Below, in pieces: positions 5,739-61,740 of a stretch of DNA of 64,000 nt. Position 1 is the stretch's first letter. Each line of letters starts with the position of its first letter. The translations under genes and the position numbers were made by a program. The stretch covers positions 1,372-65,371 of the forward strand of contig CAZLTC010000006.1 in the NCBI GenBank assembly GCA_964562405.1, in the 5' to 3' direction. The notes below the pieces were generated by a model that saw nothing but the letters and a program-made list of their open reading frames with translations, searched no databases and was not told where the DNA came from. This DNA is from an uncultured bacterium (GTDB lineage: Bacteria; Joyebacterota; Joyebacteria; Joyebacterales; Joyebacteraceae).

Positions 5739-8585
5739 ATGCGTGGTCCAGCGCTCCCGGCGCCCGCGTTTGCCGTGTTGGTGGCCGGATTAATGAGCCT
5801 TGCAGCGGTCTCGGCGCTTGCCGCGCCGATGAACGGGGACATTGTGACGATTCGCCAGGCTGATGGGTCGTTCATTGACCTGGCGGTCTGGGGTGATGAG
5901 TTCTACGCGGTCGGGGAGACGCCGGACGGTTACACGGTCGTGCGCGATGACGTGACCGGCGTCTATTGCTACGCGAAGGTCTCGGCGGATGGGAACAAGC
6001 TCGTGTCGACGGGCATCCCTGCGGCGATCGGGCAGGTGCCCGCGGGCCTCTCGAAGCACGTCCGAGTCGACCGGGAGGCGGCTAGCGCGAAGGCCCGCGA
6101 GGTTAGGCAGGCCTTTGAGGCGCGCGAGCTGCAGGATTTGTCTGTTCTGCCCGAACCTCCCGGGCGCTCGCGCGGGACGTCGACGGGCAGCGTGACGGGG
6201 CTCACGCTCATCGTCGACTTCTCAGACGATGTGGGGACGATACCGCCCAGCTCCATCGATGACTTCTGCAACCTCGAGGGGTACACCGGATACAGCAACA
6301 ACGGTTCCGTGCGCGACTACTTCGATGACGTATCCGGAGGACTGCTCGACTATACCAACTATGTTTCGACCGCGTACTACCGTGCTGCGAACCCGAAGTC
6401 CTACTACACCGATCCCTCGGTCTCCTACGGGACCCGGGCCGTCCAGCTGATCAAGGAAGCGTTGAACGCTCTCGATGCGGCGGGGTTCGATTTCAGCGCG
6501 TACGACGCGGACGGGAACGGGAGCATAGACGCTCTGAACTGCTTCTACGCCGGCGCGACCTGGAACAACTGGGCCGAGGGCCTGTGGCCTCACTCAGGCT
6601 GGATGTCGTGGTGCGCGGACGGAGTGTGCACGCAGCGATATCAGATCTCGAACCTGGGAAGCTCTCTCAGGCTCGGCACGTTCGTGCACGAGAACGGCCA
6701 CATGCTGATGGGTTGGCCGGATCTCTATGACTACGACGGGGACTCGGCGGGCGTCGGCCAGTTCTGCGTGATGTGCTCGGTCGGACCGGGTACGAATCCG
6801 ATCGAGCCTTGCGCCTACATGAAGTACACGGCGGGTTGGGCCGACTTGTCGATGCCGACCGGCTACGAGAACGGCCTCTCCGCACCGAGTGCCGGGAACG
6901 TCGTCTACAAATTCGACAAGCCGGGCGCGCCCAACGAATACTACCTCGTTGAGAACCGGCAGAAGACCGGACGGGACAGCGCGATTCCAGACAATGGGCT
7001 TGCCATATGGCACGTCGACGAGAACGGCAGCAATGACTGGCAGCAGCGGACGCCGGACTATCACTACGAAGTCACTCTCGTGCAGGCCGACGGAGACTGG
7101 GATCTCGAGCACTACAACAACAATGGTGACAGCTACGACCTCTACGCGGCCACCGCGGAGACGGAGTGCACTCCCACCACATACCCCAACACCGACTGGT
7201 GGGACGGGAGCGAGTCGGGTTACTACTTCACGAACATCAGCTCGTCGAGCTCCGTGATGACGTTCGACTTCGCAGATGGTCCTCCGTTCAACCCCGAGTT
7301 CACCGCGCCGGTCTTCGCGTGCGAGATCGAGAAGTCGGGCTCGGCGACTTATCTAACCACTATCAGAAACCCCGGTAGTCTGTCCGGCAACGCCGACGTG
7401 GATATCGAGCAGGAGATCCTGCCCGACGGCGTCACGGACACCGACTGGACCGCCACCTACAGGCAGGTCGGCGGGCCGTGGCTCTCCACTCCCTCGTCCT
7501 TTTACCTTGGTCCGGGCGAGGAGATCGATATGGAAGTGAGGTTCGAGGACGGCATGGGTACCATGGAGGGGATGTGCCTGACGACGCTCACCGCGACCGT
7601 CAGCTCCGACCCGACGCTCTCGAACAAGGGATCGTTCGCGACGTTCGTGGACATGCCATGCGTGGCGATCATCGACGACGACAACGGAGCCGCGAACGAG
7701 ACATACCTCGCCACCGCCCTGGAAGATGCTGGATACTGCGCCAGGGTTTGGGACGCCTCGTCCCGCGGCCGGCCCAGCATCGAGGAGCTGTCGTCGTACA
7801 GCGCGGTCTTCTGGACGACGGCCGGAGGTGACGCCTCGTATCTGAGCGCGGACGACGAGCAGAACCTGATGGACTATCTCGACGGGGGTGGCGACCTCTT
7901 CATGTCCAGCATGGGCTACCTCACGGCCAGGACAGCACCCAACGCCTTCACCCAGGACTACCTGCACCTGGACTCGTGGCAGGACGACGTGGTCGCCTTC
8001 TCGGCGGCCGGGGTTGCCGGCGACCAGATATCCGATGGCATGAGTCTCATGCTCCTGGCGGGTCCCGTTTCCTCGAGTGGCTCCGATGCGATGGTGCTGG
8101 ACACACCGGCCGAGGCCATCTTCAGCGCGTCGTCGAACGTGACGGGCCTCAAGGTGGCGGAGGGCGACCACAAGATCGTCTTCCTCTCATTCGCCTTCGA
8201 GAACGTCAAGACCGCCACGGAGGACCCGAACAACCAGAGGACTCTCGTCTCCAGGGTCATGGACTGGTTCATGAACACGACGGGAGTCGATGATCTCACG
8301 ATCGGACGGCTCGCACTCGGGCACAACTACCCGAACCCGTTCAATCCGACCACGAACATCGCCTTCTCGGTGCCTGATGGGACCGAGCCCGTGGCTCTCC
8401 GGGTCTACAGCGTGGACGGCCGTCTGGTGAGGACGCTCGTGGATGGAGCTGTGCCTGCCGGGCCGCATACCGTGCTCTGGGACGGGACGAATGATGCCGG
8501 CGTGAGCGTGGCCTCTGGTGTCTACTTCGCGCGTCTGAGTTCGGCGGGAGAGACGAAGCAGACGAAGATGGCGCTCCTCAAGTAA
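5739..8585 (+). CDS. Secreted M6-like (immune-inhibitor-A-type) zinc metalloprotease with shared C-terminal sorting domain
   Basis: HENGH zinc motif followed by PDLYDYDG as in the M6 family; hydrophobic signal after M at 5739 (GGAGGAAAG upstream). The ORF-track start 5670 sits directly on the predicted -10 element and is unlikely. C-terminus NYPNPFNPTTNIAFSVP...GVYFARL...KMALLK. Confidence 0.75.
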   Translation: MRGPALPAPAFAVLVAGLMSLAAVSALAAPMNGDIVTIRQADGSFIDLAVWGDEFYAVGETPDGYTVVRDDVTGVYCYAKVSADGNKLVSTGIPAAIGQVPAGLSKHVRVDREAASAKAREVRQAFEARELQDLSVLPEPPGRSRGTSTGSVTGLTLIVDFSDDVGTIPPSSIDDFCNLEGYTGYSNNGSVRDYFDDVSGGLLDYTNYVSTAYYRAANPKSYYTDPSVSYGTRAVQLIKEALNALDAAGFDFSAYDADGNGSIDALNCFYAGATWNNWAEGLWPHSGWMSWCADGVCTQRYQISNLGSSLRLGTFVHENGHMLMGWPDLYDYDGDSAGVGQFCVMCSVGPGTNPIEPCAYMKYTAGWADLSMPTGYENGLSAPSAGNVVYKFDKPGAPNEYYLVENRQKTGRDSAIPDNGLAIWHVDENGSNDWQQRTPDYHYEVTLVQADGDWDLEHYNNNGDSYDLYAATAETECTPTTYPNTDWWDGSESGYYFTNISSSSSVMTFDFADGPPFNPEFTAPVFACEIEKSGSATYLTTIRNPGSLSGNADVDIEQEILPDGVTDTDWTATYRQVGGPWLSTPSSFYLGPGEEIDMEVRFEDGMGTMEGMCLTTLTATVSSDPTLSNKGSFATFVDMPCVAIIDDDNGAANETYLATALEDAGYCARVWDASSRGRPSIEELSSYSAVFWTTAGGDASYLSADDEQNLMDYLDGGGDLFMSSMGYLTARTAPNAFTQDYLHLDSWQDDVVAFSAAGVAGDQISDGMSLMLLAGPVSSSGSDAMVLDTPAEAIFSASSNVTGLKVAEGDHKIVFLSFAFENVKTATEDPNNQRTLVSRVMDWFMNTTGVDDLTIGRLALGHNYPNPFNPTTNIAFSVPDGTEPVALRVYSVDGRLVRTLVDGAVPAGPHTVLWDGTNDAGVSVASGVYFARLSSAGETKQTKMALLK

Positions 8586-8640
8586 CGCTGCCCGGCGTCC
8601 GCACCGCGGACGCTGGAACATCGCGAGTCGAGAATGCGGC

Positions 8641-8692
8641 TGTTGCATCGAGACGCCCTGTGCGAAAGCACGGGGCGTCTTCTTCAATGCAA
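8641..8692 (+). terminator. Long GC hairpin (inner stem GAGACGCCCTGTGC / GCACGGGGCGTCT, GAAA loop, outer arms GTTGCAT / ATGCAAC) followed by TCTTCTTC; terminator after the M6-like gene
   Basis: Inverted repeat seen directly; a second smaller hairpin lies at 8594-8612. Confidence 0.5.
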
Positions 8693-8806
8693 CATCGGGA
8701 AACGGTTGTCACACTTCACTCGTCTGGTACGGCACTTGCCCTGCTTGTGCACAATGTGTGTCAGGAACGTCTCACGTCACGAACGGGGGAAGGGAGATAC
8801 GGCGAG

Positions 8807-9901
8807 ATGAGAACATCGATCGTCCTAGTCTGCGCGGCAGTTCTGTGTGTCCCGGCGATCTGCGCCGGCCAGGAGTCCTACATCACGCTCGAGGAGAACA
8901 CCTGGGGCAACGCGCACAAGGAGTTCAACCTTGTGACGATACCCGATTGGATCGACAGCCTGGTGACGACCGGGTCGCCGCTCGTCATGGGGAAGCCAGG
9001 CCGGTCTCTGACGTTCGCGGACGGATCCGAAGAGGCGATACTCGCCGCGCTCCCGGCGTCGGGCCAGCCGGCCGTCCTGCCGGAGGACCTCGGCGACGCT
9101 CTGGTCGACTCGACGTGCGCCCTTCCCGAAGGGCTCCCGGCCAGCAAGAAGGGCAAGCTCAAGAACTCGCTTCTAGGTGAGACGATGGCGCTGGCCCTCA
9201 ACGCGAGGCTCGACCCGGAGCTGATAGACCTGGACGTCTGCTCCGTGATGATGACCGTAAACGTGCTGGCGGGCCCAGATGAGCTCTACGGTACAGAGGA
9301 CGACTCGCTGTGCGCGATGTGCGACACGATGACGATACGCATCCCGGAGGCCGTTCTGTCCGCGCTCCAGGATAGCATGGGCGTGGAACCTACCGTCGGG
9401 AACGTCCTCGAGTTCGCGAACATGGCGCTCGCGGGAGAGGGCACGTACGACGCCACCCTCAAGGGCGTATGGCACGCGGTGAAGAACATCAATCGTGGCT
9501 TCAAGAACTACCGCATGCTTGTCTACTGCGAGGGCGATACGGGCGGAGTGCCGATCGACATCAAGGGCGCGCCCGGCACTTCCGGAGGTCCTGAGGATCG
9601 CGCCGAGTCGATGGCGAGCGCCGTCGCGCTGTCGGCCTCGAGTCCGGTGAGCGACCGGGCGTTCGTCTACTTCACGGTGCCCGAGGCCAGCCGAGTGACG
9701 CTCTCTGTCTACAACGTCGCCGGCCGCGAGGTGGCGACTCTCCTGAACGGTCAGGTCTTCCAGGATCGCGCCACGGTGGAGATGGCCGCCGACAATCGAA
9801 GTGCCCTTCCGTCCGGAGTCTACTTCGTGAGAATGACGGCGGTTGGCGTCGCCAGCGGTGCCGAATACAGACAAACGGCCAAGATGCTGGTGGTTCGCTG
9901 A
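8807..9901 (+). CDS. Hypothetical secreted protein with divergent copy of the shared C-terminal domain
   Basis: Start MRTSIVLVCAAVLCVPAICAG (signal peptide) with GGGGGAAGGGAG upstream. C-terminus ...VYFTVPEASRVTLSVYNVAGREVATLL...GVYFVRM...KMLVVR. The ORF-track 5' extension from 8660 lacks an RBS/signal. Confidence 0.6.
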   Translation: MRTSIVLVCAAVLCVPAICAGQESYITLEENTWGNAHKEFNLVTIPDWIDSLVTTGSPLVMGKPGRSLTFADGSEEAILAALPASGQPAVLPEDLGDALVDSTCALPEGLPASKKGKLKNSLLGETMALALNARLDPELIDLDVCSVMMTVNVLAGPDELYGTEDDSLCAMCDTMTIRIPEAVLSALQDSMGVEPTVGNVLEFANMALAGEGTYDATLKGVWHAVKNINRGFKNYRMLVYCEGDTGGVPIDIKGAPGTSGGPEDRAESMASAVALSASSPVSDRAFVYFTVPEASRVTLSVYNVAGREVATLLNGQVFQDRATVEMAADNRSALPSGVYFVRMTAVGVASGAEYRQTAKMLVVR

Positions 9902-10006
9902 CCCCGGTCCAGCCCCTGACCCCGGTGCCCTCCTGGCACCTTCCTCGGCCGCCGCCCCCAACCTCGGGGCGGCGGCGCCTCGTTTACTTCCCCCTGCAGA
10001 TTCCCC

Positions 10007-10054
10007 TTGACAGCCTGCGACAGTCGTCGCAGAATATGTGTGACAGTTGTCGCG
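10007..10054 (+). promoter_or_regulatory. Promoter -35 (TTGACA) plus two GACAGTYGTCGC dyad repeats: candidate BlaI-family operator upstream of blaI-blaR1-like genes
   Basis: GCGACAGTCGTCGC (10017-10030, perfect palindrome) and GACAGTTGTCGC (10042-10053), 11 nt apart, between TTGACA and the ATG at 10077. Confidence 0.35.
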
Positions 10055-10076
10055 GACCCCCGAACAAGGAGTCGCC

Positions 10077-10538
10077 ATGAAGTCGCTTCCCAGCCTCTCG
10101 CGGTTCGAGCTTCAGTGCCTGCGGAAGCTCTGGAACCGCAAGGAGGGGACGGTCAGGGACATTCACGGAGACCTCGCCGACCCCCCGAGCTACTCGACCG
10201 TCAGGAAGATCATGGACCGCCTGGAGGAGAAGGGCGCAATAGAGCGCGTCCGCAAGGAAGGGAAGGCGTGGGTATACCGCTCCAGAGTCTCCCCACGGGA
10301 GATGCTCCGCAAAGAGATAAGGCAGTTTCTCGATGTGGCGTTCGATGGCTCGGCGGCTCCGCTCGTCGCGCAGCTGGCGCGTATGCAGGAGCTCACCGTC
10401 GAGGACTTGAGAGAGGTCGAGAGGGTCCTGGCTGGTGACAGAGCCGCCGCTTCCGAGACTGACTCCCACGACGAGAACGGTGTTCGCTCGCGCAGCGAAG
10501 GTCCGTCCACCGACGACAGGCACGAGGAACAGGTCTGA
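10077..10538 (+). CDS. BlaI/MecI/CopY-family winged-helix transcriptional repressor
   Basis: MKSLPSLSRFELQCLRKLWNRKEGTVRDIH...YSTVRKIMDRLEEKGAI...WVYRSRVS matches the penicillinase-repressor family. AAGGAG RBS before ATG 10077. Confidence 0.75.
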   Translation: MKSLPSLSRFELQCLRKLWNRKEGTVRDIHGDLADPPSYSTVRKIMDRLEEKGAIERVRKEGKAWVYRSRVSPREMLRKEIRQFLDVAFDGSAAPLVAQLARMQELTVEDLREVERVLAGDRAAASETDSHDENGVRSRSEGPSTDDRHEEQV

Positions 10539-10584
10539 CATATCGCGCGTGGTGGAAGGACCCCCGCGCGTCGGAGGTACGACG

Positions 10585-12099
10585 GTGAACGAGGTGCTCG
10601 AGTACGCGACCGGTTACTGGATGGCGGTTGCGTCACATCTGTGGCAGACGACCATGCTTATACTCTTCCTCTCGGGTCTCGCCCTGATCTTGAAGCGGGC
10701 GCCGGCGCGCGTGCTCAACGCGCTCTGGTGGGTCGCGCTGGCGAAGCTCGTCGTGCCCGTATCCATCGTCGCGCCCGCCGTCAGCCGCGCGCTGGGTCCA
10801 GTGCTCGATCGACTCGAACAGGGCTCGGCCCCGATGGAGGCCGTGACCGTCTGGCTGCACAGGGCCGGCCCCGTCCTGGATCCCATCGCGTCCGTCGCTC
10901 GTCCCACCCCGGGACTGCCCGGCGCGCTGGGTCTCGCACTCCTAGTCGCCTGGGCTGTCGGCGCCTCCTGGTTCGCCGTCGTCTGGCTGCGCTCGAGAGA
11001 CTGGAGGGTTGTCGGAGAGTCGCGGCCGATCGACGGTCTGTCGACCGCGGCAGCGCGCGGGGCGTTGGATGCGCTGCAAGGCACGCGCATACCGGCCGGC
11101 GCGGTGCTGGTCACGCGCGAGCCGCTCACGCCCTCGGTCGTCGGTATCTTCCGCCGCAGGATCATCCTCTCGGTGGACGTCATCGAGAGACTGGAGCCGC
11201 ATGAACTGAGGGCCATCCTGCTTCACGAGGACGCACACCGGCGCCGGTTCGAACCGCTGCAGGTGCTCGTCCAGAGGGTGGCCGTGGCCGCGTTCTACTT
11301 CTTCCCGCCGCTCTGGCCGGTGCTCCGGCGGCTGCGGGAGACCAGCGAGATGGCGTGCGACGAGGCCGCCGTTCGTCAGGGCGTGCGCCCGGAGCGTTAC
11401 GCGACCGCCCTGGCAAGGACTCTGAACATTGGACTGGAGCCTCTCGGGCTGGCCGTCGGCCTCGCGCGAGGGACTCCCACGCTCACGCGCAGCAGGTTTG
11501 AGCGGCTGCGGAACGAAGGGAGGTTCACACCGATGAGATGGCATTGGGCATGTCTCGTGGTGGCCGTGCTCGCTGCTGTTGCGACCGCCGTGCTTTCGGC
11601 CATTCCGACGATCGCAGGCGAGCCGGAGGGTGGGGCTACCTCTGTCAAGACCGAGGTCACGACCGACGAGAACGGCGACAGGGTCATGGAAGTGACCATA
11701 GAAGGAGAAGAGGAGGAAGAGGCCACGTACACGGTGACCCTTCTTCACAGCGAGCCCCCGGAATACCCGGAGGACGCAAAGACGGACGGCGTCGGCGGCA
11801 GGGTCGTTCTCGAACTCATGATCAATTCCGACGGGACAGTCGGCGAGGTCACCGCCGTCCAGGAAGTCGAGGACTACCCGTCGCTCACCGAGGCAGCGAC
11901 AGAGGCGGCCAGCCAGTGGACGTTCGAGATCCAGGGCGAGGTCGACGGTGAGCAGACGCTCGAGGTCATCGTTCCCATCGAGTTCAAGATGGATGGCGAG
12001 AAGACCAAGACGATCAAGATCACCGTCCCGGACGCGACCGAGGCGCCGGAGGCCCCCGGCGAGCCGGAGGAGCCCGACGAGGCGGACGCGCCCGAATAG
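10585..12099 (+). CDS. BlaR1-like M56 family membrane metallopeptidase/sensor fused to a TonB C-terminal-like domain
   Basis: Multi-TM N-terminus, HEDAH (HExxH) zinc motif. C-terminal EPPEYPEDAKTDGVGGRVVLELMINSDGTVGEV resembles the TonB_C fold, preceded by a Glu/Pro-rich linker. GTG 10585 with GGAGG 7 nt upstream; the ORF-track start 10435 overlaps blaI. Confidence 0.7.
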   Translation: MNEVLEYATGYWMAVASHLWQTTMLILFLSGLALILKRAPARVLNALWWVALAKLVVPVSIVAPAVSRALGPVLDRLEQGSAPMEAVTVWLHRAGPVLDPIASVARPTPGLPGALGLALLVAWAVGASWFAVVWLRSRDWRVVGESRPIDGLSTAAARGALDALQGTRIPAGAVLVTREPLTPSVVGIFRRRIILSVDVIERLEPHELRAILLHEDAHRRRFEPLQVLVQRVAVAAFYFFPPLWPVLRRLRETSEMACDEAAVRQGVRPERYATALARTLNIGLEPLGLAVGLARGTPTLTRSRFERLRNEGRFTPMRWHWACLVVAVLAAVATAVLSAIPTIAGEPEGGATSVKTEVTTDENGDRVMEVTIEGEEEEEATYTVTLLHSEPPEYPEDAKTDGVGGRVVLELMINSDGTVGEVTAVQEVEDYPSLTEAATEAASQWTFEIQGEVDGEQTLEVIVPIEFKMDGEKTKTIKITVPDATEAPEAPGEPEEPDEADAPE

Positions 12100-12183
12100 G
12101 GGGTGCCGAGGCAGTAGAGAGAAGAGCAGGGGCCGCTGCGGCTCCGGGAGGCCGGCAGATAGGGTCTCTCCGGGGCCGCGCGC

Positions 12184-13689: not shown

Positions 13690-13765
13690 GCCCGGCGTCC
13701 CTCGACCGCGCGGACCGCAGCATCCGCAGCGCCGATCCGCCGGCCGCCACATCAGGACACCAATC

Positions 13766-14695
13766 GTGCGCGAACTCACCCACCTGAAGGTACTCGGGAT
13801 CAGATACCGGAACGCCCGTCCGGCGCCCGACGACGAGAGAGGCCTGGACGCCCTCCTGGCCTCCGGGGCATACGAGTCCGCGGGAGTTCCCTTCGACATC
13901 AGCGAGCCACGGTTGTCGGAGGCCGCTCAGTCAGCGCCCGAGAACGGGGAGCCCGGCGGCGACGAGGCGGCTCGTACCCTCGATGCGAAGCAGACGGGCG
14001 CGCTGTGCGGGCTCATCGCCGCTGATGTGGCGTCGGCCGTGAGTGCCGGCTCCGGCGTGCTCGTGGTCGGCGGGAACTGCTCTCACGGTCCCGGCGTCGT
14101 CGGGGGATTGCTGCAAGCATACGGGGCGGAGACGCGCGTCGGTCTCGTCTGGTTCGACGCGCACGGCGACTTCAACACGCCCCGGACGAGCCGGTCGGGC
14201 AGCCTCGGCGGCATGCCCGTCGCGGTCCTCGCCGGCCTGGCGTACCCTGACTGGAGGATGCGAGCCGGCGTCGCGCGGCCGCTCCCCGCCGAGAGCGTCC
14301 TGCTCGTCGGCTGCCGCGACCTCGACGAGGGGGAGGGGCGTCTCCTGGAGGAGTGCGGCGTGCGCGTGGCCGGAATGGGTGATGCGGGTGCGATGGTCGA
14401 CCTGGTGGAGCGCTCGGACGTGATCTGTCTCCACGTTGACATCGACGTGCTCGACGCTGCCCTTGTCCCGGGGCACAGGTCGGCAGTCGCCGAAGGTCCG
14501 TTGGTGGCCGGGTTGCTCGCCGCCATGGAGACGGTTCTCGCGACCGGGAAGGTCGCGGCTATCGCTGTCGTGTCCACATCCTCGGCCGGTGAACTTGGAC
14601 ACACTACCGTGGAGTCGGCGGCCGATGTCATCCGCGGCGCCCTCCGCGCGTGGCGATCGCACGGGTTGCCGGAAGCGGCCGGAGGCCGATCATGA
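13766..14695 (+). CDS. Arginase/agmatinase/formiminoglutamase-fold (ureohydrolase) protein with atypical first metal motif
   Basis: VVGGNCSHG (in place of GGDHS), WFDAHGDFNTP (DAHxD), HVDIDVLDAALVPG (DxDxxD) in the canonical order and spacing of the arginase family. GTG start. Confidence 0.65.
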   Translation: MRELTHLKVLGIRYRNARPAPDDERGLDALLASGAYESAGVPFDISEPRLSEAAQSAPENGEPGGDEAARTLDAKQTGALCGLIAADVASAVSAGSGVLVVGGNCSHGPGVVGGLLQAYGAETRVGLVWFDAHGDFNTPRTSRSGSLGGMPVAVLAGLAYPDWRMRAGVARPLPAESVLLVGCRDLDEGEGRLLEECGVRVAGMGDAGAMVDLVERSDVICLHVDIDVLDAALVPGHRSAVAEGPLVAGLLAAMETVLATGKVAAIAVVSTSSAGELGHTTVESAADVIRGALRAWRSHGLPEAAGGRS

Positions 14696-15870: not shown

Positions 15871-18360
15871 TTAGCGCAGGAGCACGAGCTTCGAGGAGGA
15901 GGCGCCGCAATCCGTCTCGAGCCTTGCGAAGTAGACCCCCGACGCCACGGGTCTGCCGCCGCCGTCGCGACCGTCCCACGCCACGGCAGACGCGCCGGCC
16001 GCGAACTCGCCCCCGGCGAGCGTGCGGACCAACCGCCCGGCGGCGTCGTAGATCGATACGCTGCCTCGCGAGCGCGAGGGGAGCAGAAGGGATATCGAGG
16101 TTGAAGGTCCGAACGGGTTGGGGTGCGTGCCGGAGATGCGCGGAGCGACCGGCAGGCCAGCCTCGGCCTCGTCATCCGGGACGTCTGACTGTGTCCCGTA
16201 GGCGAGCACGATGAGTCCCATCCCGGGCAGCTGCACCACGGCCGACTGTGCATACCCGTCCTCCGCGACCGCCTCCGAAGAGATGACGCCGGGGTTCTCC
16301 ATGCCGTTTCCGTCGTAGGCGGCGGCCTGGCTGTTGAGCGCCTCGTACCAGTCGCCGGCCTGCGGGAGGCCGATGCGGTAGCTTCCGTAGTCGGAGTCAC
16401 CGAAGTTCGCGAGGACGACCAGCACGTCTCCGGCTCCGCTCCAGCGCTGCCACGCGATGACGTTGCCGCTCTCGTTGAGGTGGAACACTTCATGTCCCGC
16501 GTCGGCGCGCAGCGCGTCGTTCCCCGTCCGCAGATGAATGAGGTCGCGGTAGTAGTTGAAGATGGGCGCATAGGTCGTCTTCTTGGACCAGTCGATGCGG
16601 TTCTCGTAGTCGGTCCCGAAGTCCGTGTCCTCGAGCCACTCGGTTCCCATCAACATGGCGGGGATGCCCGGAGCAGTCATGACGATACCCTGCGCGAGCT
16701 TGCTCCTGCCCTTGGCCCACTCGTCGTCATGGGGCGCCGTAGCGTCTATCGATTTGACGATGCGCTGGCCGCCGCTGGAGGGCCAGGCCTCGTCGTGCAG
16801 CTCGACGTAGTTCGTGACGTAGCCGTTCTCCAGATACTGGCCACCCCCGTTCACGATGTCCCTGATCTTCCATACCTCCGGGTCTCCATAGGCGGCGTCA
16901 AAGATCTCCTCGCGCAGGCGGTCCGTGAACACATCGTAGTACTGCGAGTCAAAGCCGGCTCCTCCCAGGCTGGTCGGGCGCGTCACCCAGGAGTTGTCCG
17001 GGAGCTGTTCGGCGATGGCGATCTTGTCGACCCACCTTCGGTCCATCTCGTCGTTCATGCGCTGCATGAGGCTCCAGCCCGAGGCCTCCTGAGGGTAGAT
17101 GTTCATGTAGCCGGTGGCGTCCATCCGGAACCCGTCGACCTTGAACTCCTCGAGCCAATAGAGAGCGCTGTCGGCAAGGTAGTCACGCACCGGCTCGTCG
17201 TCGAAATCGGGTTGACTGCCCCACGGTGTCTCGACCGCGGGGTCGTCGAAGTAGGCTTGCGTCCCGTCGTACTCCCAAAGGAAGTTGTCGCTGTAGGAGA
17301 AGTGGTTCCAGACGATGTCGAGGATGACGGCGATGCCGTAGGAGTGCAGGGTATCGATCATCTCCTTGAGCTCATCCGGCGTGCCGTACGCCCACTCCGG
17401 TGCCCACTGGGAGATCGGATTGTATCCGGCCGAGTAGTCCCAGGGGAACTCCGTGATCGGGTTCAGCATGACCGCGTTGACGCCCAGCTCGGAGAGGTGA
17501 GAAGCTCTCGCCGCTACCTCGGGGTAGCCGGCCGGGAAGGGCGCCGTGCCGTACGGGTCGTTCCTTCCGGAGAACGTGCCTACATGGAGCTGGTAAACGA
17601 CCATCTTCTCGAAGTCGGGTGTGTCGAAGTCGTCCATCTGCCAGTCGTACCTGAAACGATCCTCGATGTGGGTGTTGAGGTTGTCCCCGGAGTTCAGCGA
17701 CTTCCCGCGCGCGTCGGGCTTCCAGATCGAACCGTTGAAGTAGTACTTGTACATCTGGCGATTCGAGGCCGAGGGCACGTACGCGGCGAAGTACTCGCCG
17801 TCCTTCGTCATCGGGCTGGAGGTGCCCCAGCTGTTGAACTGGCCGCGGACGTAAGCAGTCGACGCACCGGGCGCCCACACCCGGAAGACCGCGCCGCCAT
17901 CGACCAGCGTCGAGCCGAGCGGGGCGTGCTCAAGGGTGTCAAAGTCGAGCACGAACCCGCCGTCGGTCGGAACACCGTCGGTCATCCCGCCGGCGCTCAG
18001 GTAGTCGACGTCCGCGCCGTCGGTCAGCTCGATGTAGTAGGAGAGGGTCGTGGACGACGTCGATGGGATCTGCGCCGTCCATACATCAAACGGCCCGCGT
18101 GCGGCTGTCTCAACGGCTCCGATCCAGGCGACGTCGCCGTCTTCGACATGTACGCGGGCCGAAGCTATGTCATCGTGGTAGGTCTGGAAGAGGATCTCGA
18201 AGCTCTGGCCGCTCATGGGGCACAGCGGCCTTCTGTCCTGCCACCAGACGTGAGATATGCCGTTCCACTCTATGTTGCCGTCGGGGCCTGCGGCCCCCGC
18301 AGTCATGCAAAGGGCGGCCACCAGGGCCGCTGCAGCTCCAGTGAGCCTGAGCGACTTCAT
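15871..18360 (-). CDS. Secreted GH13 alpha-amylase-family glycoside hydrolase with shared C-terminal sorting domain
   Basis: Signal MKSLRLTGAAAALVAALCMTAGAAG. GH13 motifs AVILDIVWNHFS, GFRMDATGYM, YVELHDE. C-terminus HPNPFGPSTSISLLLP...IYDAAGRLVRTL...GVYFARL...KLVLLR. Confidence 0.8.
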   Translation of the reverse strand: MKSLRLTGAAAALVAALCMTAGAAGPDGNIEWNGISHVWWQDRRPLCPMSGQSFEILFQTYHDDIASARVHVEDGDVAWIGAVETAARGPFDVWTAQIPSTSSTTLSYYIELTDGADVDYLSAGGMTDGVPTDGGFVLDFDTLEHAPLGSTLVDGGAVFRVWAPGASTAYVRGQFNSWGTSSPMTKDGEYFAAYVPSASNRQMYKYYFNGSIWKPDARGKSLNSGDNLNTHIEDRFRYDWQMDDFDTPDFEKMVVYQLHVGTFSGRNDPYGTAPFPAGYPEVAARASHLSELGVNAVMLNPITEFPWDYSAGYNPISQWAPEWAYGTPDELKEMIDTLHSYGIAVILDIVWNHFSYSDNFLWEYDGTQAYFDDPAVETPWGSQPDFDDEPVRDYLADSALYWLEEFKVDGFRMDATGYMNIYPQEASGWSLMQRMNDEMDRRWVDKIAIAEQLPDNSWVTRPTSLGGAGFDSQYYDVFTDRLREEIFDAAYGDPEVWKIRDIVNGGGQYLENGYVTNYVELHDEAWPSSGGQRIVKSIDATAPHDDEWAKGRSKLAQGIVMTAPGIPAMLMGTEWLEDTDFGTDYENRIDWSKKTTYAPIFNYYRDLIHLRTGNDALRADAGHEVFHLNESGNVIAWQRWSGAGDVLVVLANFGDSDYGSYRIGLPQAGDWYEALNSQAAAYDGNGMENPGVISSEAVAEDGYAQSAVVQLPGMGLIVLAYGTQSDVPDDEAEAGLPVAPRISGTHPNPFGPSTSISLLLPSRSRGSVSIYDAAGRLVRTLAGGEFAAGASAVAWDGRDGGGRPVASGVYFARLETDCGASSSKLVLLR

Positions 18361-18755: not shown

Positions 18756-20067
18756 TTACCTCAGCAGGACGAGCTTCACAGGGTCGGCACCCGACCCGGC
18801 AGCGAGCCGCGCGAAGTACACACCGGAGGGCAAGGGGCGTCCAACCGAGTCCCGGCCGTCCCATTGGGCGGCCGCGAGGGGGGACGCCTCGAGGCGCCGC
18901 AGCAGTCTCCCCGAGATGTCGTACACGTTGATGGCGTGCGCTTCACTTGAGGGCGTGGCGGGCGCCAGGAAGATCGCCTCGCGGAACGGATTCGGCCAGC
19001 ACCGGAGGACCGGGGGCGCGACGGCCACAGGGGCGTCCGCCGAGTCTCCGGGTATGTCCGTCGGAGGATCCAGCAGGGCGAAGTGGACCTGCATGTTGCT
19101 CTGCGTCGTGCCGCGCGGCCAGGCGAGAGCTACGATGCCGCTCGAGAGCGTCACTGGGTGCGGCTCCGTGTCCCAGCCCGCGTAGCTCAGCCAGTTCTCC
19201 TCGCTCGCCCAGGCGTAGCCGTCGTCGGAGACGCGCGAGTACAGATCGTAGGGGTCGCCACCGGTCGACGTTGCGTAATAGAGCCCGTACCGCCCGTCAG
19301 CCAGCTCGATGGGGAAGGAGTCGTGCGAGTTCTGCGTGTAGGTGACGCGGTTCTCTGCGCTCCAGTTCAGCCTGTCGGTCGACGTCTTCGTGAAGATGTC
19401 TATCTGGTAGTACCAGATACCGGTCTTGCGCTGATAGCTCAAGACGTACGTCCCATCCGAGTGGCGCATGATGCGGTTCAGTGAACCGGTGCTGGCGTTC
19501 GTCTTGTCGTGGTCCCATGTCGTCCCGTCCTCCGAGTGGGCCACGTGGCCCCCGTTCGAGAGCAAGTCGTAGCTCATGGTCAGGGATCCGTTGTTCTCGG
19601 AGAAGACGGTGGGGTTTACAAGGTCCTCGGTCGTCCACCCGAGGTCCACGATGCCTCGACGCGTCCAGGTCGTGCCGTCGGGGGAGTCGGCCATGTGTAT
19701 GCGGTAGCCGCCCGTCTCATCCGACAAGTAGTAGAGCTGGTACGTCCCGCCGGGCAGCTGAATGACCGATGGATGCCTCTCGTTCCCAGACGTGGCGACG
19801 ATAGCGCGAGGTGGGGACCACACCGCCCCGTCGGACGACACCGTCAGCATCAGATCACCGTTTTCATAGTTCGAGTCCAGCCTCTCATACACGATCATGA
19901 GGGAGCCATCGTCGCACTCGAGAAGCGAGGGCATGTAGTTCAGGTACCCGTCGTCGGTCACGGGCACGATGTCATAGGAGCACGCGGCCGATGCAATGAG
20001 CGCCAGTGCGCAGCATGCACTTGCCGCGGCCATGTGCGGACGGTGAACCGGCGAACGTGCAGACATG
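18756..20067 (-). CDS. BNR/Asp-box repeat (sialidase-like beta-propeller) protein with shared C-terminal sorting domain
   Basis: Four Asp-box repeats (SSDGAVWS, SPDGTTWT, SEDGTTWD, SDDGYAWA). Signal MSARSPVHRPHMAAASACCALALIASAACS. C-terminus WPNPFREAIFLAP...VYDISGRLLRRL...GVYFARL...KLVLLR. The ORF-track extension to 20735 is antisense to yajC and rejected. Confidence 0.7.
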
Positions 20068-48200: not shown

Positions 48201-48429
48201 GCTCGCGATGGGGTGGGGCGGCGTGTCGGTCACCTGGGGACCGATGGCTGCGTCGCTGGCCTGGGGTCTGGCGTTCGCGACCGTGCTCACGCTGTTCGTG
48301 ATACCGGCGCTCTTCTGCATCGTCGATGATGTGCGGGCCCGCTTCGGCAAGCTTGACGTGCCCGGCGGGCGCCAGCCGGACCAGGACCTCAAGGTCGTCG
48401 AGGCGTTGTGCCGTGACCTGGAGGAGTGA
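45286..48429 (+). CDS. RND (HAE1/AcrB-like) efflux transporter permease
   Basis: 1047 aa with 12 TM segments and two large periplasmic loops; AcrB-family conserved segments. Confidence 0.85.
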   Translation: MHIGEFSVRQPVLVNLVFIAVLVVGVFTFFNMPAELLPNVNMDEAVVVVFYAGVSPEEMETLVTKPLEEEIDAVEDIDSVSSTSGESRSIIDVRFKPGLSDDEFDRRILDLRSAVGNARSELPEDAGDPEVVPIKLGEVIPILSLSIGGPVSDTVLREVADDLRDDILDVDYVRAVDVVGQREREIWVELDADRLESYGLPIGQVVASLSSRNLNVPAGTLDLGQSEYIVRTLGEFESLTDIEDSVIASDPYGRQIRIRDVGAVRDTLEVRLSAARLDGEKSVTLWVMKDKEGSVVNVVDDVRAVVDSYGKRLTEDVSFEIRNDTSIEVRDVLHILERNAVFGIILVALILFVFIGFRNAVLASIGIPFSFLAAFILMNAAGVTVNTLSLFSLVLVLGMLVDDAIIVIENIYRHMEHGMPARQAAVVGTGEVLAPVTAAVLTTVAAFLPLLLMSGLWGKFMSVIPKVVTFALLASLVEAFLVLPSHMADFARVTPRATRCHPQFVSFTRWYERILRRALLRRYRTMLLVGVLALVAIGLVFTLDVVIFQEEDLNQIEIRAQTAVGTRLDVTDRVAREIEQVLFELPSDEVEAVVTRVGFMIRNYRGELASNNMQFNVDLVDYELRDRSDDEIMEAVRRRISSEVPGLTFLSLSRPQQGPPSGRPVEVRVKGEDPGVLRRIANEMEALLATYPGVVDIDDDMTPGKSELNARIIPEAAALYGLTAYDISSTVRAAFEGVDATKYRGAGDDEIDIVVRLEEPDRSDLEDLRGLRVISPTGRSVPLGAVAEFSIDAAPAELHRRDGDRVVTVTGGVAGATTSTEVNRMLQRDLADVPDRYPGYRLDFGGEYQETQESFASLLMAFLVAIMLIYLILGTEFQSFIQPLIVMFTVPFAFIGVVIGLVVMRYPFTLNAGVAIVALAGVVVNDSIVLVDFIKKARAEGVTRWESVVQAGCMRLRPILLTSITTILGVLPLAMGWGGVSVTWGPMAASLAWGLAFATVLTLFVIPALFCIVDDVRARFGKLDVPGGRQPDQDLKVVEALCRDLEE

Positions 48430-48478
48430 ACGGGGCCGTGCGCGCGAGCGCGAAGATGAGGCCTTCGAGGAAGATGCT

Positions 48479-49438
48479 GTGACGGAGACACTTGGAAACC
48501 GGGCGGCGCGTGGTGCGGACGACGGTAGCGAGATCCGGGGGCAGGTTCTCGCGTGCTTCCACGACGAGTGGGAGGTCGCGCTGTCGGGAGGCCCGATCGT
48601 CCGCGCGTCGATCCGGGCGCGGCACTTCCTGGGCCTTCCGCGCGAGGAGAAGATCCTCGTTGCCGGAGACCACGTTGAACTCGCGCGCGTGAGAGACGTA
48701 GCCTACGTCATCGAGCGGCGTCTGCCGAGGTCGACCATCCTCTCCAGGCTCCTGCCCGGAGCCCGGCGCGACAAGGAGCAGGTGATCGTGGCCAACGCCG
48801 ACCTCCTCGTGGCCGTCGGCTCGCTCTCCTCGCCGGCGCTCAACAGGCGCCTGCTCGATCGCTTTCTCGTGATCGCCGAGGACGCTGGTCTGGAGTCGGT
48901 CGTCGTCCTGAACAAGGTCGACCTCGTGAGCGAGTCGGACTGGTCCCATGTCGCTCTGGGCTACGCGGCCGCGGGATACGCTGTGATCGCGACCTCCGCT
49001 ACGGAGGGCCGCTGCGTCGAGGAGCTGTCCGCGCGTCTAGCCGGCCGTTTCACGGTCTTCGCCGGTCCGAGCGGAGCGGGGAAGAGCTCCTTGCTGAACG
49101 CCATCGAGCCCGGCCTGGGCCTCAGGGTCAGAGAGGTGAGCGCCAAGACCGGCAAGGGGAAGCACACAACGTCCAACGTGACCGTGCTCAGGTTGGATGA
49201 TGGCTCTCTCGTGGCTGACACTCCGGGCTTCCGGGAATTGGGCTTCTGGAGGATCGACCCGGGCGAGCTGGACCAGCTCTTCCCCGAACTGCGCGCTCTC
49301 GCGCCGCAGTGCAGGTTCAGGGGATGCAACCATATCCCGGAGCCCGGCTGCGCCGTCACACGCGCGCTCGAGGAAGGCCGTCTTGATGGTGAGCGCTACG
49401 AGAGCTACGTGAAGCTCTTCGAGGAGCTGTCCGGCTGA
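48479..49438 (+). CDS. rsgA: Ribosome small-subunit-dependent GTPase A, copy 2 (RsgA paralogue)
   Basis: Same architecture as copy 1: OB-fold, P-loop GPSGAGKSSLLN, Zn-finger CRFRGCNHIPEPGC. GTG 48479 with GAGGAAG upstream; the ORF-track start 48326 overlaps the RND gene. Confidence 0.75.
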   Translation: MTETLGNRAARGADDGSEIRGQVLACFHDEWEVALSGGPIVRASIRARHFLGLPREEKILVAGDHVELARVRDVAYVIERRLPRSTILSRLLPGARRDKEQVIVANADLLVAVGSLSSPALNRRLLDRFLVIAEDAGLESVVVLNKVDLVSESDWSHVALGYAAAGYAVIATSATEGRCVEELSARLAGRFTVFAGPSGAGKSSLLNAIEPGLGLRVREVSAKTGKGKHTTSNVTVLRLDDGSLVADTPGFRELGFWRIDPGELDQLFPELRALAPQCRFRGCNHIPEPGCAVTRALEEGRLDGERYESYVKLFEELSG

Positions 49439-52102: not shown

Positions 52103-52126
52103 GGGCGGGGCACTTGGGCCCCGCCC
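52103..52126 (-). terminator. Hairpin GGGCGGGGC-ACTTG-GCCCCGCCC downstream of the Yip1 gene (minus strand)
   Basis: 9-bp GC stem; the minus-strand transcript would read ...hairpin-UUUCCUCGUCUUG. Confidence 0.4.
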
Positions 52127-52155
52127 TCTTCGGAAATCTCTGGCCGCGGCCGGCT

Positions 52156-53567: not shown

Positions 53568-53646
53568 CCGGCGGGACCAGGGTTGCAGTCGCGGGCCAGC
53601 AGGCAAGGAAGAGGGGCCGTCCTCAGGACGGCCCCTTCTCATTGCG

Positions 53647-53734
53647 TGGTACCGGAGGCCGGGCTCGAACCGGCACGGGCCAGAGGCCCTCGGGATTTTG
53701 AGTCCCGCGCGTCTACCAGTTCCGCCACTCCGGC
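53647..53734 (-). tRNA. tRNA-Leu (anticodon CAA), 88 nt incl. encoded CCA
   Basis: Reverse complement folds as acceptor GCCGGAG / CUCCGGU, D-arm, anticodon stem CGGGA/UCCCG with loop CUCAAAA, long variable arm GGGCC..GGCCC, T-arm GCCGG-UUCGAGC-CCGGC, 3' ACCA. Confidence 0.85.
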
Positions 53735-53751
53735 GTGGTGGCGCAGAGGAG

Positions 53752-53780
53752 ACTCTAGCATCAGCGCAGTGGCCGGTCAA
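53752..53780 (-). promoter_or_regulatory. Promoter TTGACC-N17-TAGAGT (minus) driving tRNA-Leu
   Basis: Read from the reverse complement; -10 lies ~17 nt upstream of the tRNA 5' end. Confidence 0.45.
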
Positions 53781-53826
53781 GGCGCGCGCATCGCACGAGA
53801 TGGAGGGCGACGCGCGGACATTGAAC

Positions 53827-53854
53827 TTGACTGGAGGGCCGCAGATGCTAGAAT
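53827..53854 (+). promoter_or_regulatory. Promoter TTGACT-N16-TAGAAT driving tRNA-Ala
   Basis: -10 lies ~25 nt upstream of the tRNA 5' end; shares GATGCTAGART with the tRNA-Leu promoter. Confidence 0.45.
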
Positions 53855-53879
53855 ACTCAGACACACAGGATTCAAACTT

Positions 53880-53956
53880 GGGGCCATAGCTCAGTTGGGA
53901 CGAGCGCTTGACTGGCAGTCAAGAGGTCGCGGGTTCGATCCCCGCTGGCTCCACCA
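53880..53956 (+). tRNA. tRNA-Ala (anticodon GGC) with G3:U70 identity pair, encoded CCA
   Basis: GGGGCCA acceptor pairing with UGGCUCC (G3-U70 wobble), anticodon stem CUUGA/UCAAG with loop CUGGCAG, T-arm GCGGG-UUCGAUC-CCCGC, 3' ACCA. Confidence 0.85.
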
Positions 53957-54092
53957 GATGCCGCGAGTCTCGGTCGCCGGGAGACCTCTGACAAGGCCTC
54001 CCGGCGGACTCGTCTGGAGGCGGTGTGCCCGGGCGCCGGGGCGGATGCTCCCGGTCCGGAATACCCTCCGGGGGTGCTGAACGCCCAGCGTC

Positions 54093-54121
54093 TTGACACG
54101 GCGGCGTGACTGTGCTACACT
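54093..54121 (+). promoter_or_regulatory. Promoter TTGACA-N17-(TG)cTACACT for the C25/FG-GAP giant gene, followed by a ~200-nt leader
   Basis: Consensus -35, 17-nt spacer, TGn + TACACT; leader contains hairpins GGGATT-GTGA-AATCCC and GGAAC-AG-GTTCC. Confidence 0.5.
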
Positions 54122-54321
54122 GTATTGTAGGGATGCAGACGGGATTGTGAATCCCGCGAGACCACGGAAGCAGGAGCTTGCCACCAAGGATCACTGCTAT
54201 CGCTCAGCTTCATAGTCTGATTCCGGCACGACGAATGCCGTATTGACTGTGAGGAAGCGAGGCCGTTGGTTCATTGGTGGAACAGGTTCCTGCTTCTGCG
54301 TATTCAGGAGGGTGCTGTCAG

Positions 54322-57300
54322 ATGCGAGGTCATCTTGGGGCGGTGGTCGCTGCCGGCATCGTCTTGTCCGTCGCGGCAGTCGTTCAGTCGGCGCCTGGTG
54401 TCGCGCGCGTTTCGTTCGATGCGGCGGATCTTCACATATCGAGGCTTGGTGGCTTCGAGAGCGTGAGCATGGCGGGGTGCAGTTCGATGTCGCAGGTTGG
54501 GGAGCCGGAACTCCCGGTCATGGTCTTCCGGTTCGTTATCCCGGCCGACGCCAGGGTGGAGGACGTACTTGCCGAGTTCGATGAAGTCGACGTGCCGGGC
54601 GTGCATTCGGTGTCGCCCGCACAGCCCGAGGTCCCCATAGGGGAGGCCCCCGAGCGCGCGCAGCCGGACCCGGTGATCTATGGAAGCAGCGAGCCGTTTC
54701 CCTCCAGCCGCGTGCGCTACCTGGGTGACGGGTATCTGGGCGGATATCGCATCGCGAGCGTGGCGGTCTATCCACTGCAGTACGCCCCGAAGGAGGGACG
54801 CCTGACGCTGGCTACGGACGTCTCGGTTGAGTTGGTGCTTGCGCCAGGCGCCGAACGCGCCCGTCCGCGTCACAGAATGTCGGCCGAGGCGCAGCGGCTG
54901 TACGCCAGTCTGGTCGAGAGCATCGTCGAGAATCCGGGTGACGTCGTGACCTCGAGATCGGGCGCGGTCGATATCGTGGAAGACCAGGGGGACGTCGGTT
55001 TCAGTCCCCGATACACTCCGTCGCTTGAGGGCAGCCTGGTCGAGTACGTCATCATCACGAACGAAACGCTCGAGCCGTACTTCCAGCAGCTCGCCGACGC
55101 CAAGACGGCGAAGGGCGTGCCCGCGGTGGTGCGTACGGTCTCGTGGATCGAGGAGAACTACCCGGGCGGATGTGACCTGCCGGAGCGAGTGAGGATGTTC
55201 ATCCAGGACGCATACTCCTCCTGGGGAACGGTCTACGTCCTGCTCGGCGGGGACACGGACATCGTGCCGGTTCGCAAGGCGCAGACAACGTACTACGGTG
55301 GCGAACTGATCCCGTGTGACCTCTATTACAGTGACCTCGACGGCAACTGGAACGACGACGGCGACAGTTACTTCGGAGAGGCGTACAGGGGCGAGACCGC
55401 TCCGGGCGACAGTGTGGACCTGTATCCCGACGTCTTCGTTGGACGTGTCCCCGCGAGGAACTCCATCAACGTTCAGTCGTTCCTGGACAAGACCGACGCC
55501 TACGAGAATGACCCTGTTCCGAAGTTCACAGACAGAAACCTCTACCTGGCGGAAGTGCTGTTCCCCTACGACTGGGACGGCGGCGTCTACAGCCTGGACG
55601 GAGCAGCCGACATCGTCGAGCCGGGACTTCCGTTCGTGCCTCCGTCGATTCACAACGCGCGGCTCTATCAGAACCAGGCGGAGTTTCCGGGCTCGTATAG
55701 CCTGAGTGCTCAGGCCCTGGTGGACTCGTTCAACCTGGGCTACAACATCGCTGTTCACGTAGGCCACGGGAACAAGGACATTATGAGGGCCAGCAAGGAC
55801 AGCTATCTCTCGATGTCCGACGCGTCTGAGTTGTCCAACGGCATCGACAAGGCCTCGTTCCTATGGATGCTGGACTGCTCGACGACGGCCATTGACTACG
55901 ACTGCATTGCCGAACGGTTCATGAACAACCCCGACGGTGGTACCATGGCGCTCTTCGGACCCACCCGGTACGCCTTCCCAGCGACCTCGAGAACGTACTA
56001 CTGGGACTGGCTGGACCTTCTGTACAACCAGGGCATCACGAGGGTAGGTCCCCTGTGCGCCGCCTCCAAGGCTCTCCACGCCAGCTACGCGGAGTCCGGC
56101 ACCGACAACACCGACCGATGGACTCAGTTTGCGACCGTCACGCTGGGCGACCCTGAGCTACCACTCTGGACGGGAAGGCCGCAGACGCTGGCCGTCGGTC
56201 ACCCGTCGGGTCTGCGAGTCGGCGACTCCGGGATGACCGTCACGGTGACCGACCCGAGTCCGGTGGACAGCGCTCTCGTATGTGTGAGCAAATCCGGGGA
56301 CGTCTACGCTCGCGGCTACACCAACGCTTCAGGGCAGACAACGCTGTCGTTCGTTCCCCACACGACAGGAACGCTCAGCGTGGTCGTGTCACGTCCCGGC
56401 TATGAGCCCCACGAGTCGACCGCGAACGTGACGGCCGCCTCCGGCGCGCACGTCTACCTGACATCGGTGGCGATCGACGACGACGCCTCCGGTTCGAGCG
56501 TTGGCAACGGCAATGGCGAGTGCGAGGCGGGAGAGACGATCGAGCTCGACATCACAGCGCGCAACGGCGGCAGCGCGTCCGCCGCATCGGTGACGGCCAC
56601 GCTGACGTCGGTCGACGGCTACGTCCTGATCGAGGACGACACGGCCGTGCTGGGTACGATCGCCGCATCGGGCACGGCCTCATCCGACGCAGCCTTCAGA
56701 TTCCAGACGTCGATCGACACCCCGAACGAGCACGACGCCGCGTTCACGATCCAGTTCAGCAGCGGATCGCGAGTCGTCTGGACGGAGGATTTCGACCTCA
56801 GGATATACCGCCCGATTCTCGGCCAGATTCATGTCGACCTCGACGACTCGACAGGCAACGGCAATGGGGTGCCCGAGATGGGGGAGACCGTCGATGTCGT
56901 CATCGAGCTCCTGAACGACGGCAACGGGCAAGCTGGAGCCGTCGCGGGCGTGCTGCGCTACCCCTCGGCCGGGGCAACCGTGGCCGACAGCGTCGATACG
57001 TGGGGCGACATCGAGGCCGGTGCGACGGCGGTCGGGTCCGGTGGCTTCTCATTCACGGTGAACGGCCCGCTCACCAACCACTTCCGGCTCACGCTCAGCG
57101 ACGAGCGAGGAGCCAACTGGACCTCGTACCTCGACTTCATGAGGCCTTCGGGGCCCGATACTCTCTCGGGAGTGGTCGAGGGCACCACCATAGGGCTTTC
57201 CTGGGACGTAACCACCGACGCGGATCTTCGAGGCTATGACATCTACCGCTCGCAGTCGGTGAGCGGCCCGTACGAGATCGTGAACGGCGCAGTCGTGGAG

Positions 57301-61740: not shown

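Follow-up and report, generated by a model that had tools for sequence, protein, structure and literature searches.

Seven unrelated proteins encoded in a 64-kb stretch of contig CAZLTC010000006.1 (the window, by which we mean the whole stretch of DNA analysed) ended in a common tail of about 85 residues. This tail is probably a C-terminal sorting domain (CTD) for a type IX secretion system (T9SS), similar to type A and of the FlgD-Ig-like (immunoglobulin-like) subtype that is common in phyla of the Fibrobacterota-Chlorobiota-Bacteroidota (FCB) group other than Bacteroidota. The proteins were an M6-family metalloprotease, a protein with an unassigned N-terminal domain, a GH13 alpha-glucan-active enzyme, a 'BNR-like' protein, a papain-family (C1A) cysteine protease, a gingipain-like C25 cysteine protease (hereafter the C25 giant) and a protein with DUF7901 and GEVED domains. 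A T9SS-type or FlgD-Ig-like tail shared by these seven had been proposed from the sequence of the window (the original prediction). The identity, fold, position and distribution of the tail domain each emerged from the comparisons reported here, and the proposal was upheld.

The tail was found in all seven translated open reading frames (ORFs). A six-frame search with a profile built from the seven tails, covering every stop-to-stop segment of the window, returned exactly these seven matches (E values between 1.1e-40 and 2.3e-31, 103-133 bits), and the next-best match had an E value of 1.1. No copy of the tail was overlooked in the window, and chance is no explanation for the pattern. The motif given in the original prediction agreed with the alignment, in which P, G-R, L, G-x-Y, R and a terminal K were invariant. 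All seven tails reached the stop codon and had K or R as their final residue. The sequence leading into the tail was conserved as well (L-x-[LQ]-x-[QH]-N-x-PNPF) and gave no assignable cleavage site. Pairwise identity between the tails ranged from 23 to 57% in protein and from 41 to 65% in DNA, which shows that the copies are old and have diverged. In view of the low DNA identity, an origin of the tails by recent duplication or domain shuffling was rejected.

Curated domain models placed the tail among known families. Cut-offs were 23 bits for TIGR04183 (T9SS type A) and 35 bits for TIGR04131 (type B), and 27 bits for each of the Pfam models Por_Secre_tail (PF18962) and CHU_C (PF13585). All seven tails, when scanned alone, passed the TIGR04183 cut-off (27.3-35.1 bits, model positions 2-70 of 72), so that the match to a CTD family was significant throughout. 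The type B model TIGR04131 was failed, with best scores of 15.7 and 13.7 bits on two tails only, and CHU_C gave weak matches on two tails, at 22.8 bits or less. The threshold of Pfam FlgD_ig (PF13860) was passed by five of the seven whole proteins. In a profile search of the PDB, tail positions 5-87 of 88 aligned with the CTD of PorU (6za2, residues 1061-1154 of 1156; E = 8e-6), and the CTDs of RgpB, PorZ, mirolase and two Flavobacterium johnsoniae substrates were also matched. The top PDB sequence matches were Ig domains of FlgD, yet these covered only profile positions 22-77, the central 55 residues. That FlgD matched the middle of the tail only, while the PorU CTD matched it end to end, explains the double identity of the domain as FlgD_ig and T9SS CTD.

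The tail is predicted to fold as an Ig-like beta-sandwich whose nearest relative is the PorU CTD. An AlphaFold model of the tail of the GEVED protein was an all-beta sandwich (predicted local distance difference test score, pLDDT, 89.4), in keeping with the seven-stranded sandwich of the RgpB, PorZ and PorU CTDs. When this model was submitted to Foldseek, the best query-normalised template modelling (TM) score was that of the PorU CTD (0.73, E = 5e-4), followed by FlgD (0.56-0.65); the PorZ CTD was listed too. The PNPF start, the G-R loop, G-V-Y and the K-x-x-L-L-K/R end, which are the conserved elements of the tail, are equivalent to motifs A, B, D and E in CTDs of type A. In D-V-x-G-R-x-V, the invariant G is the counterpart of a glycine in the L-beta3-beta4 motif that is required for function (PMC11285876). 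Experiments in Porphyromonas gingivalis have shown that this CTD glycine and the C-terminal residues matter, the C-terminal residues and the lysines of motif E being needed in CTDs (PMC10202324; PMC11285876). CTDs are also known to be incompatible between species (PMC11285876).

The host lineage was placed by means of the C25 giant. Full-length relatives with 50-70% identity were found in metagenome-assembled genomes (MAGs) of Candidatus Eisenbacteria/Eiseniibacteriota, and remoter ones in Krumholzibacteriota, Fibrobacteraceae, Cloacimonadota, Neomarinimicrobiota, LCP-89 and Bacteroidales. On this taxonomy the window belongs to an Eisenbacteria-like member of the FCB group. Its GC content was 63-68% throughout, in line with the uncultivated high-GC lineage that had been suggested.

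In a comparison set of 80 related loci the tail profile gave 96 matches. Scores reached 60-114 bits in the phyla outside Bacteroidota, whereas in Bacteroidales loci they were low or matches were absent. Proteins of Eisenbacteria, Krumholzibacteriota, Cloacimonadota and Marinimicrobia bore this subtype at their very C-terminal end. In the related loci, 77 of the 82 full-length tail matches stopped no more than three residues short of the stop codon, and 78 of 84 tails had K or R as their final residue. This position and this basic end agree with the published need for C-terminal residues and motif E lysines. A word-indexed search of 5.8 billion proteins detected at least 7,221 proteins matching the tail at E ≤ 1e-5. 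Among the matches listed, the NCBI name in Eisenbacteria and Krumholzibacteriota was 'T9SS type A sorting domain-containing protein', and in Zixibacteria and Calditrichaeota 'T9SS C-terminal target domain-containing protein'. The JGI/IMG label was 'flagellar hook assembly protein FlgD' for many of the tail-only fragments and small tail proteins among them. An exhaustive profile search of a 1.84-billion-protein library recovered 427,004 cluster representatives at E ≤ 0.001, of which 268,994 also satisfied E ≤ 1e-10. The tail domain is therefore extremely common and already catalogued, and the seven proteins are fresh members of a known large family.

The domains upstream of the tail were mostly those named in the original prediction. 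Five of its assignments (M6, GH13, C1A, C25/FG-GAP and GEVED) were recovered with Pfam or NCBIfam models, and its coordinates were correct with a single exception, the start of the 'BNR-like' gene. It had also stated that each protein begins with a signal peptide. Inspection by eye found plausible Sec signals in all seven, recognisable by a charged n-region, a hydrophobic core and an A-x-A-like small-residue end, and those of the genes starting at 5739, 8807, 54322 and 59539 were clean. The M6-family metalloprotease (positions 5739-8585, plus strand) matched the TIGR03296 M6 domain at 168 bits and began with the signal peptide MRGPALPAPAFAVLVAGLMSLAAVSALA. Its tail (8316-8582, plus strand) scored 39.6 bits with FlgD_ig and 35.1 bits with TIGR04183, and matched the tail profile at E = 4e-38. 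The next gene (8807-9901, plus strand) encoded a signal peptide and an N-terminal domain that we could not assign, as residues 1-278 had no Pfam match and no significant PDB sequence match. Its tail (9623-9898, plus strand; 29.4 bits with TIGR04183 for the tail alone, tail profile E = 2e-31) was the most diverged of the seven, lacking both PNPF and WDG and ending in KMLVVR.

Two of the genes were on the minus strand. The GH13 enzyme (15871-18360) possessed a signal peptide and the Pfam domains CBM_48, Alpha-amylase and Alpha-amylase_C, and its tail (15874-16137, minus strand) scored 43.4 bits with FlgD_ig and 31.4 bits with TIGR04183. The 436-residue 'BNR-like' protein (18756-20066) started at the ATG at 20066 and not at 20067 as first given, and its tail (18759-19010, minus strand) reached 29.1 bits with TIGR04183. 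The 'BNR/sialidase-like' assignment remained unproven: it relies on three S-x-D-G-x-x-W (Asp-box-like) motifs, and the N-terminal part had no Pfam match and no significant PDB sequence match. The protein is probably a beta-propeller. Its N-terminus may be that of a lipoprotein rather than a plain signal peptide.

The remaining three genes were on the plus strand. The papain-family protease (33739-36273) combined a signal peptide, a Peptidase_C1 domain (168 bits) and a Big_7 domain with a tail at 36007-36270 (plus strand; FlgD_ig 33.6 bits, TIGR04183 34.6 bits). The C25 giant (54322-59058, 1578 residues) consisted of a signal peptide, a prodomain, a catalytic domain, an Ig-like domain, fn3, an FG-GAP beta-propeller and the tail (58780-59055, plus strand; TIGR04183 27.3 bits). 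In Pfam it matched Peptidase_C25 (189 bits over the full model), Propeptide_C25 and FG-GAP_3. Immediately upstream of this gene were two tRNA genes, tRNA-Leu(CAA) at 53647-53734 on the minus strand and tRNA-Ala(GGC) at 53880-53956 on the plus strand; the mechanically called ORFs at 53583-54080 and 53891-54187 lie across these tRNAs and do not represent genes. The last of the seven (59539-61740) had a signal peptide, DUF7901 (298 bits) and GEVED (48 bits), and its tail (61468-61737, plus strand) scored 48.3 bits with FlgD_ig and 29.1 bits with TIGR04183.

Other proteins of the window were apparently exported without the tail. A pullulanase of 1,113 residues (2074-5415) and a double-M16 peptidase (38965-41583) had clear signal peptides and no tail, and the tail therefore marks only a subset of exported proteins. 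Its presence on unrelated proteins with signal peptides, and its absence from other exported ones, is the behaviour expected of a sorting tag. If the tag is served by a T9SS, each protein would cross the inner membrane by the Sec route, directed by the N-terminal signal peptide seen in its sequence, and would then fold in the periplasm. An outer-membrane translocon and a PorV-type shuttle would recognise the tail, in which the G-R loop is exposed and the K-x-x-L-L-K/R end is basic, and would bring the enzyme to the cell surface or into the medium. A C25-type sortase may then cut the tail off. The steps after Sec export are modelled on Porphyromonas and Flavobacterium by homology. An Eisenbacteria-like bacterium would in this way display on its surface, or release, several proteases together with a starch-active enzyme. 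On homology and phylogenetic placement, it is likely that the seven proteins depend on a T9SS in this organism. The placement in the FCB group would itself count for such a dependence, since T9SS genes have been reported beyond Bacteroidota, including in Cloacimonadota and Fibrobacterota (PMC11285876). So would the NCBI name of such proteins in Eisenbacteria, and the conserved PorV/PorQ-family barrel, described below, that Eisenbacteria genomes encode directly next to tail-bearing genes.

Several findings weigh against a T9SS as the route of these proteins. Five of the seven were below the threshold of PF18962 (17.3-22.4 bits against 27, at E ≤ 0.01), while the GH13 enzyme and the C25 giant had no match to it at that E value. 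The tails scored higher in Pfam for FlgD_ig than for Por_Secre_tail, though the PF18962 model appears to be tuned to Bacteroidota sequences. No T9SS core gene (SprA/Sov, GldK-N/PorK-N, PorU or PorV proper) was detected by Pfam scans of the window. This absence of machinery had been part of the original prediction, and it held: the scans took in about 40 other genes, which were of housekeeping or efflux type, and the C25 giant did not reach the PorU cut-off. C25 paralogues from Eisenbacteria, Cloacimonadota, Bacteroidales and one unclassified MAG fell equally short of that cut-off (54-86 bits, with 420 needed in model NF033707). Nor were core genes found in about 0.4 Mb of Eisenbacteria-like DNA. 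This DNA amounts to roughly 10% of one genome's worth and was chosen for other reasons, so the absence of a T9SS core from it means little. The library search showed that the tail domain also occurs in tandem inside proteins. The strongest matches (P0241-P0260) were giant proteins of 1,250-4,000 residues with 8-15 internal copies, and P0277 had up to 21. The fold therefore also serves as a repeated structural module and not solely as a terminal signal.

The literature is divided. According to one review, CTD proteins are restricted to Bacteroidota (PMC10202324), and the TXSScan survey found T9SS only in Bacteroidetes (PMC4793230); others admit further FCB phyla. We found no paper in the indexed literature that joins Eisenbacteria and T9SS, and the Caldithrix abyssi genome paper reported no gliding machinery of the Bacteroidetes type, although Calditrichaeota proteins bear the tail. 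These points, too, count against T9SS dependence. The indexed literature held nothing relevant on T9SS in Latescibacteria, Krumholzibacteriota, Zixibacteria or Marinimicrobia, and T9SS was not discussed in the genome papers on Effluviviacota and Cloacimonadota.

The search for machinery was extended to the 80 related loci. No ORF longer than 1800 residues was present in them besides one cargo protein, which means that they contain no SprA, and they were also devoid of FGE-sulfatase motifs of the GldK/PorK type. A set of 83 envelope-protein candidates gave only a barrel of the PorV/PorQ family, a BamG/FadL-like barrel and a CsgG homologue. In one Eisenbacteria-like MAG, a lipoprotein gene of the CsgG family (curli secretion channel-like; L006:4169-5149, minus strand) was located about 1.6 kb upstream of a gene with the tail. 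The PorV/PorQ-family protein was a 293-residue outer-membrane barrel in locus L007 that matched NF033709 over its full length (E = 1.5e-23, 83.9 bits, cut-off 90), with weaker matches to PorQ and PorV2. It was conserved in many Eisenbacteria MAGs at 62-79% identity, where its NCBI name is hypothetical. We also noted three metagenomic proteins of 410-458 residues (P0226, P0227 and P0228) in which a PorV/PorQ-like barrel and Pfam FlgD_ig are joined in a single polypeptide.

This barrel was part of a conserved gene cluster. The order was an LTD-domain protein with the tail, the PorV/PorQ-family barrel, a protein of about 830 residues, a FadL/BamG-like barrel of 425 residues, a 5'-nucleotidase and, last, another tail-bearing LTD protein; an ATP-binding cassette (ABC) transporter of sugar type lay upstream. 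The 830-residue protein possessed a ComEA-like helix-hairpin-helix region at its N-terminus and a barrel-like C-terminus. The cluster was found at L007:1-7121 and again in five independent long contigs (L081, L082, L083, L084 and L085, at about 6800-20000 in each), none of which had a T9SS core around the barrel. It looks like a locus for scavenging extracellular DNA or nucleotides that pairs tail proteins with PorV-superfamily barrels. The cluster links a PorV-superfamily barrel to tail-bearing cargo in Eisenbacteria; it is not a T9SS core.

The strongest rival explanation arises from these observations. The tail could be a sorting signal that is served by a reduced or different outer-membrane route, for instance around PorV/PorQ-family barrels, instead of the canonical SprA/GldKLMN system. 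This is tenable because no T9SS core gene was present in the Eisenbacteria-like sequence examined, and the conservation of both barrels beside tail-bearing LTD proteins in the five contigs speaks in its favour. So do the strength of the tail subtype in non-Bacteroidota phyla and its weakness in Bacteroidales, as well as the findings of TXSScan and of the C. abyssi paper. However, the sequence inspected was a small share of a genome, the barrel cluster has the look of an operon for scavenging nucleotides, not of general secretion machinery, and reports of T9SS genes exist for Cloacimonadota and Fibrobacterota, which bear the same tail subtype. We consider this explanation rather unlikely. The broader form of it, an ancestral or alternative CTD route in Eisenbacteria together with Krumholzibacteriota, Calditrichota, Zixibacteria and others, with PorV/PorQ-family barrels and a tail-bearing C25 protease as processor, appears improbable to a similar degree.

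A purely structural role is a further alternative, in which the tail would be an Ig-like module such as a stalk, an adhesion domain or a carbohydrate-binding domain and would have no part in sorting. Its relationship to the Ig domain of FlgD fits this, and the proteins with up to 15-21 tandem internal copies fit it as well. The internal repeats, however, matched only profile positions ~5-76 and were without the terminal K-M-x-L-L-K strand, whereas in the window and in the 80 related loci the tail is present once per protein, right at the C-terminus, and its basic end is conserved. In addition, it joins unrelated enzymes that have only export in common, and it passes the curated type A model. 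A structural role without sorting is therefore quite unlikely.

Another question was whether the C25 giant is the PorU-type sortase of the lineage, which would place part of the machinery inside the window. PorU belongs to family C25 and retains a CTD, the catalytic region of the C25 giant aligned with the PorU model, and the protein was kept at full length across Eisenbacteria. Its score against that model was nevertheless only 78.3 bits (model positions 366-732), and its PDB sequence matches were the catalytic domain of gingipain R2 and the prodomain of Kgp, not PorU. No porV gene adjoined the C25 giant or the tested paralogues in the window or the related loci. Several C25 paralogues per genome, partly in tandem, suit cargo better than a single-copy sortase. 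Given the low score, the gingipain-type prodomain and matches, and the similar paralogues without porV, we read the C25 giant as cargo. By score and gene neighbourhood, neither it nor the tested paralogues are recognisable as PorU, and the sortase explanation is very unlikely. Tail-ending C25 proteases occurred as tandem paralogues at L007:10600-25348, where three copies of about 1,600 residues stand in a row, and C25 proteases with the tail were also found in L006, L015, L031 and L073. Each sampled Eisenbacteria MAG had at least two paralogue types, one of about 1,600 residues with FG-GAP and one of about 1,250 residues.

That the seven are flagellar hook-cap (FlgD) proteins, as the JGI name of many homologous tail-only fragments and the top PDB matches for the central residues might imply, is extremely improbable and was rejected on domain architecture, which argues against the JGI name: the N-terminal domain of FlgD was present in none of the seven, which have protease or glycosidase domains and signal peptides instead, the FlgD match was confined to profile positions 22-77 where CTD matches extend over 5-87, and FlgD equivalog models gave 15-38 bits against cut-offs of 230-383.

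The original prediction had called the concentration of tail genes unusually dense, and this was not borne out. Seven genes in 64 kb correspond to about 1 per 9 kb, compared with roughly 1 extra tail gene per ~16 kb in the flanks of related high-GC loci, and single related loci contained five (L007) or seven (L025) tail genes in 25 kb. The window is somewhat rich in tail genes and not exceptional for such genomes. It is otherwise an ordinary stretch of chromosome, whose genes include the groups def-fmt-rsmB and ffh-rpsP-rimM-trmD-rplS-rnhB, a BlaI/BlaR pair, a TolC-HlyD-AcrB efflux system and mraZ-rsmH. In the BlaI/BlaR pair (10047-12099), the gene after that of the BlaI-type repressor encodes a BlaR1/M56 sensor-protease to which a TonB C-terminal domain is fused, an uncommon combination. 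Two paralogues of the RsgA family of ribosome-biogenesis GTPases were present (880-1914 and 48326-49438). A STAS-domain gene, anti-sigma-antagonist-like (62605-62970), sits between mraZ and rsmH (62041-63976) at the head of the cell-division cluster.

For annotation, the value of the tail is that seven enzymes of an uncultivated Eisenbacteria-like bacterium can be marked as probably extracellular or surface-bound, which fits a polymer-degrading lifestyle. The result also bears on a wider question, the T9SS dependence of FlgD-Ig-type tails, which number in the hundreds of thousands in FCB phyla outside Bacteroidota.

Among known systems, the tail is most readily compared with the T9SS type A CTDs of RgpB, PorU, PorZ and the mirolase of T. 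forsythia. It resembles them in length (~80-90 residues), in its place at the extreme C-terminus and in its Ig-like sandwich. It also shares the PNP start, the D/N-x-x-G-R/K-x-V loop, the G-V-Y strand and the basic K-x-x-x-K/R end, and both are borne by proteases and glycosidases with signal peptides. Unlike these CTDs, the tails of the window come from an Eisenbacteria-like host and not from Bacteroidota, add a W-D-G-[RT]-D motif in common with FlgD, and score 17-22 bits with PF18962, under its threshold. With the Ig domain of FlgD the tail shares the fold and the central motif V-x-L-x-V-Y-D-x-x-G-R-x-V-R-T-L ... W-D-G-x-D-x-x-G-x-x-V-x-x-G-x-Y. FlgD, however, has its own N-terminal domain and lacks the PNPF start and the K-M-x-L-L-K end, whereas the domain in the window is a terminal tag on unrelated exported enzymes. 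The T9SS type B domain (TIGR04131 / CHU_C) is likewise a beta-rich C-terminal tag of the same pathway, but the tails remained below the cut-offs of both models, and Pfam scans of the window found no PorP/SprF gene adjoining any of the seven genes. Type B CTDs of Cytophaga hutchinsonii are sometimes labelled as FlgD_ig superfamily (PMC11611037).

The C25 giant resembles the gingipains RgpB and Kgp of P. gingivalis in the order of its prodomain, C25 catalytic domain, Ig-like domain and terminal CTD. It differs in the addition of fn3 and a large FG-GAP beta-propeller and in its Eisenbacteria-like host, and sequence similarity to the gingipain structures was only about 25 bits. A single C-terminal tag that recurs on numerous unrelated exported hydrolases of a genome is also known from the LPXTG/sortase, PEP-CTERM/exosortase, GlyGly-CTERM/rhombosortase and MYXO-CTERM/myxosortase systems. 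Those tags consist of a short motif, a transmembrane helix and a basic tail, and not of a folded beta-sandwich of 85 residues.

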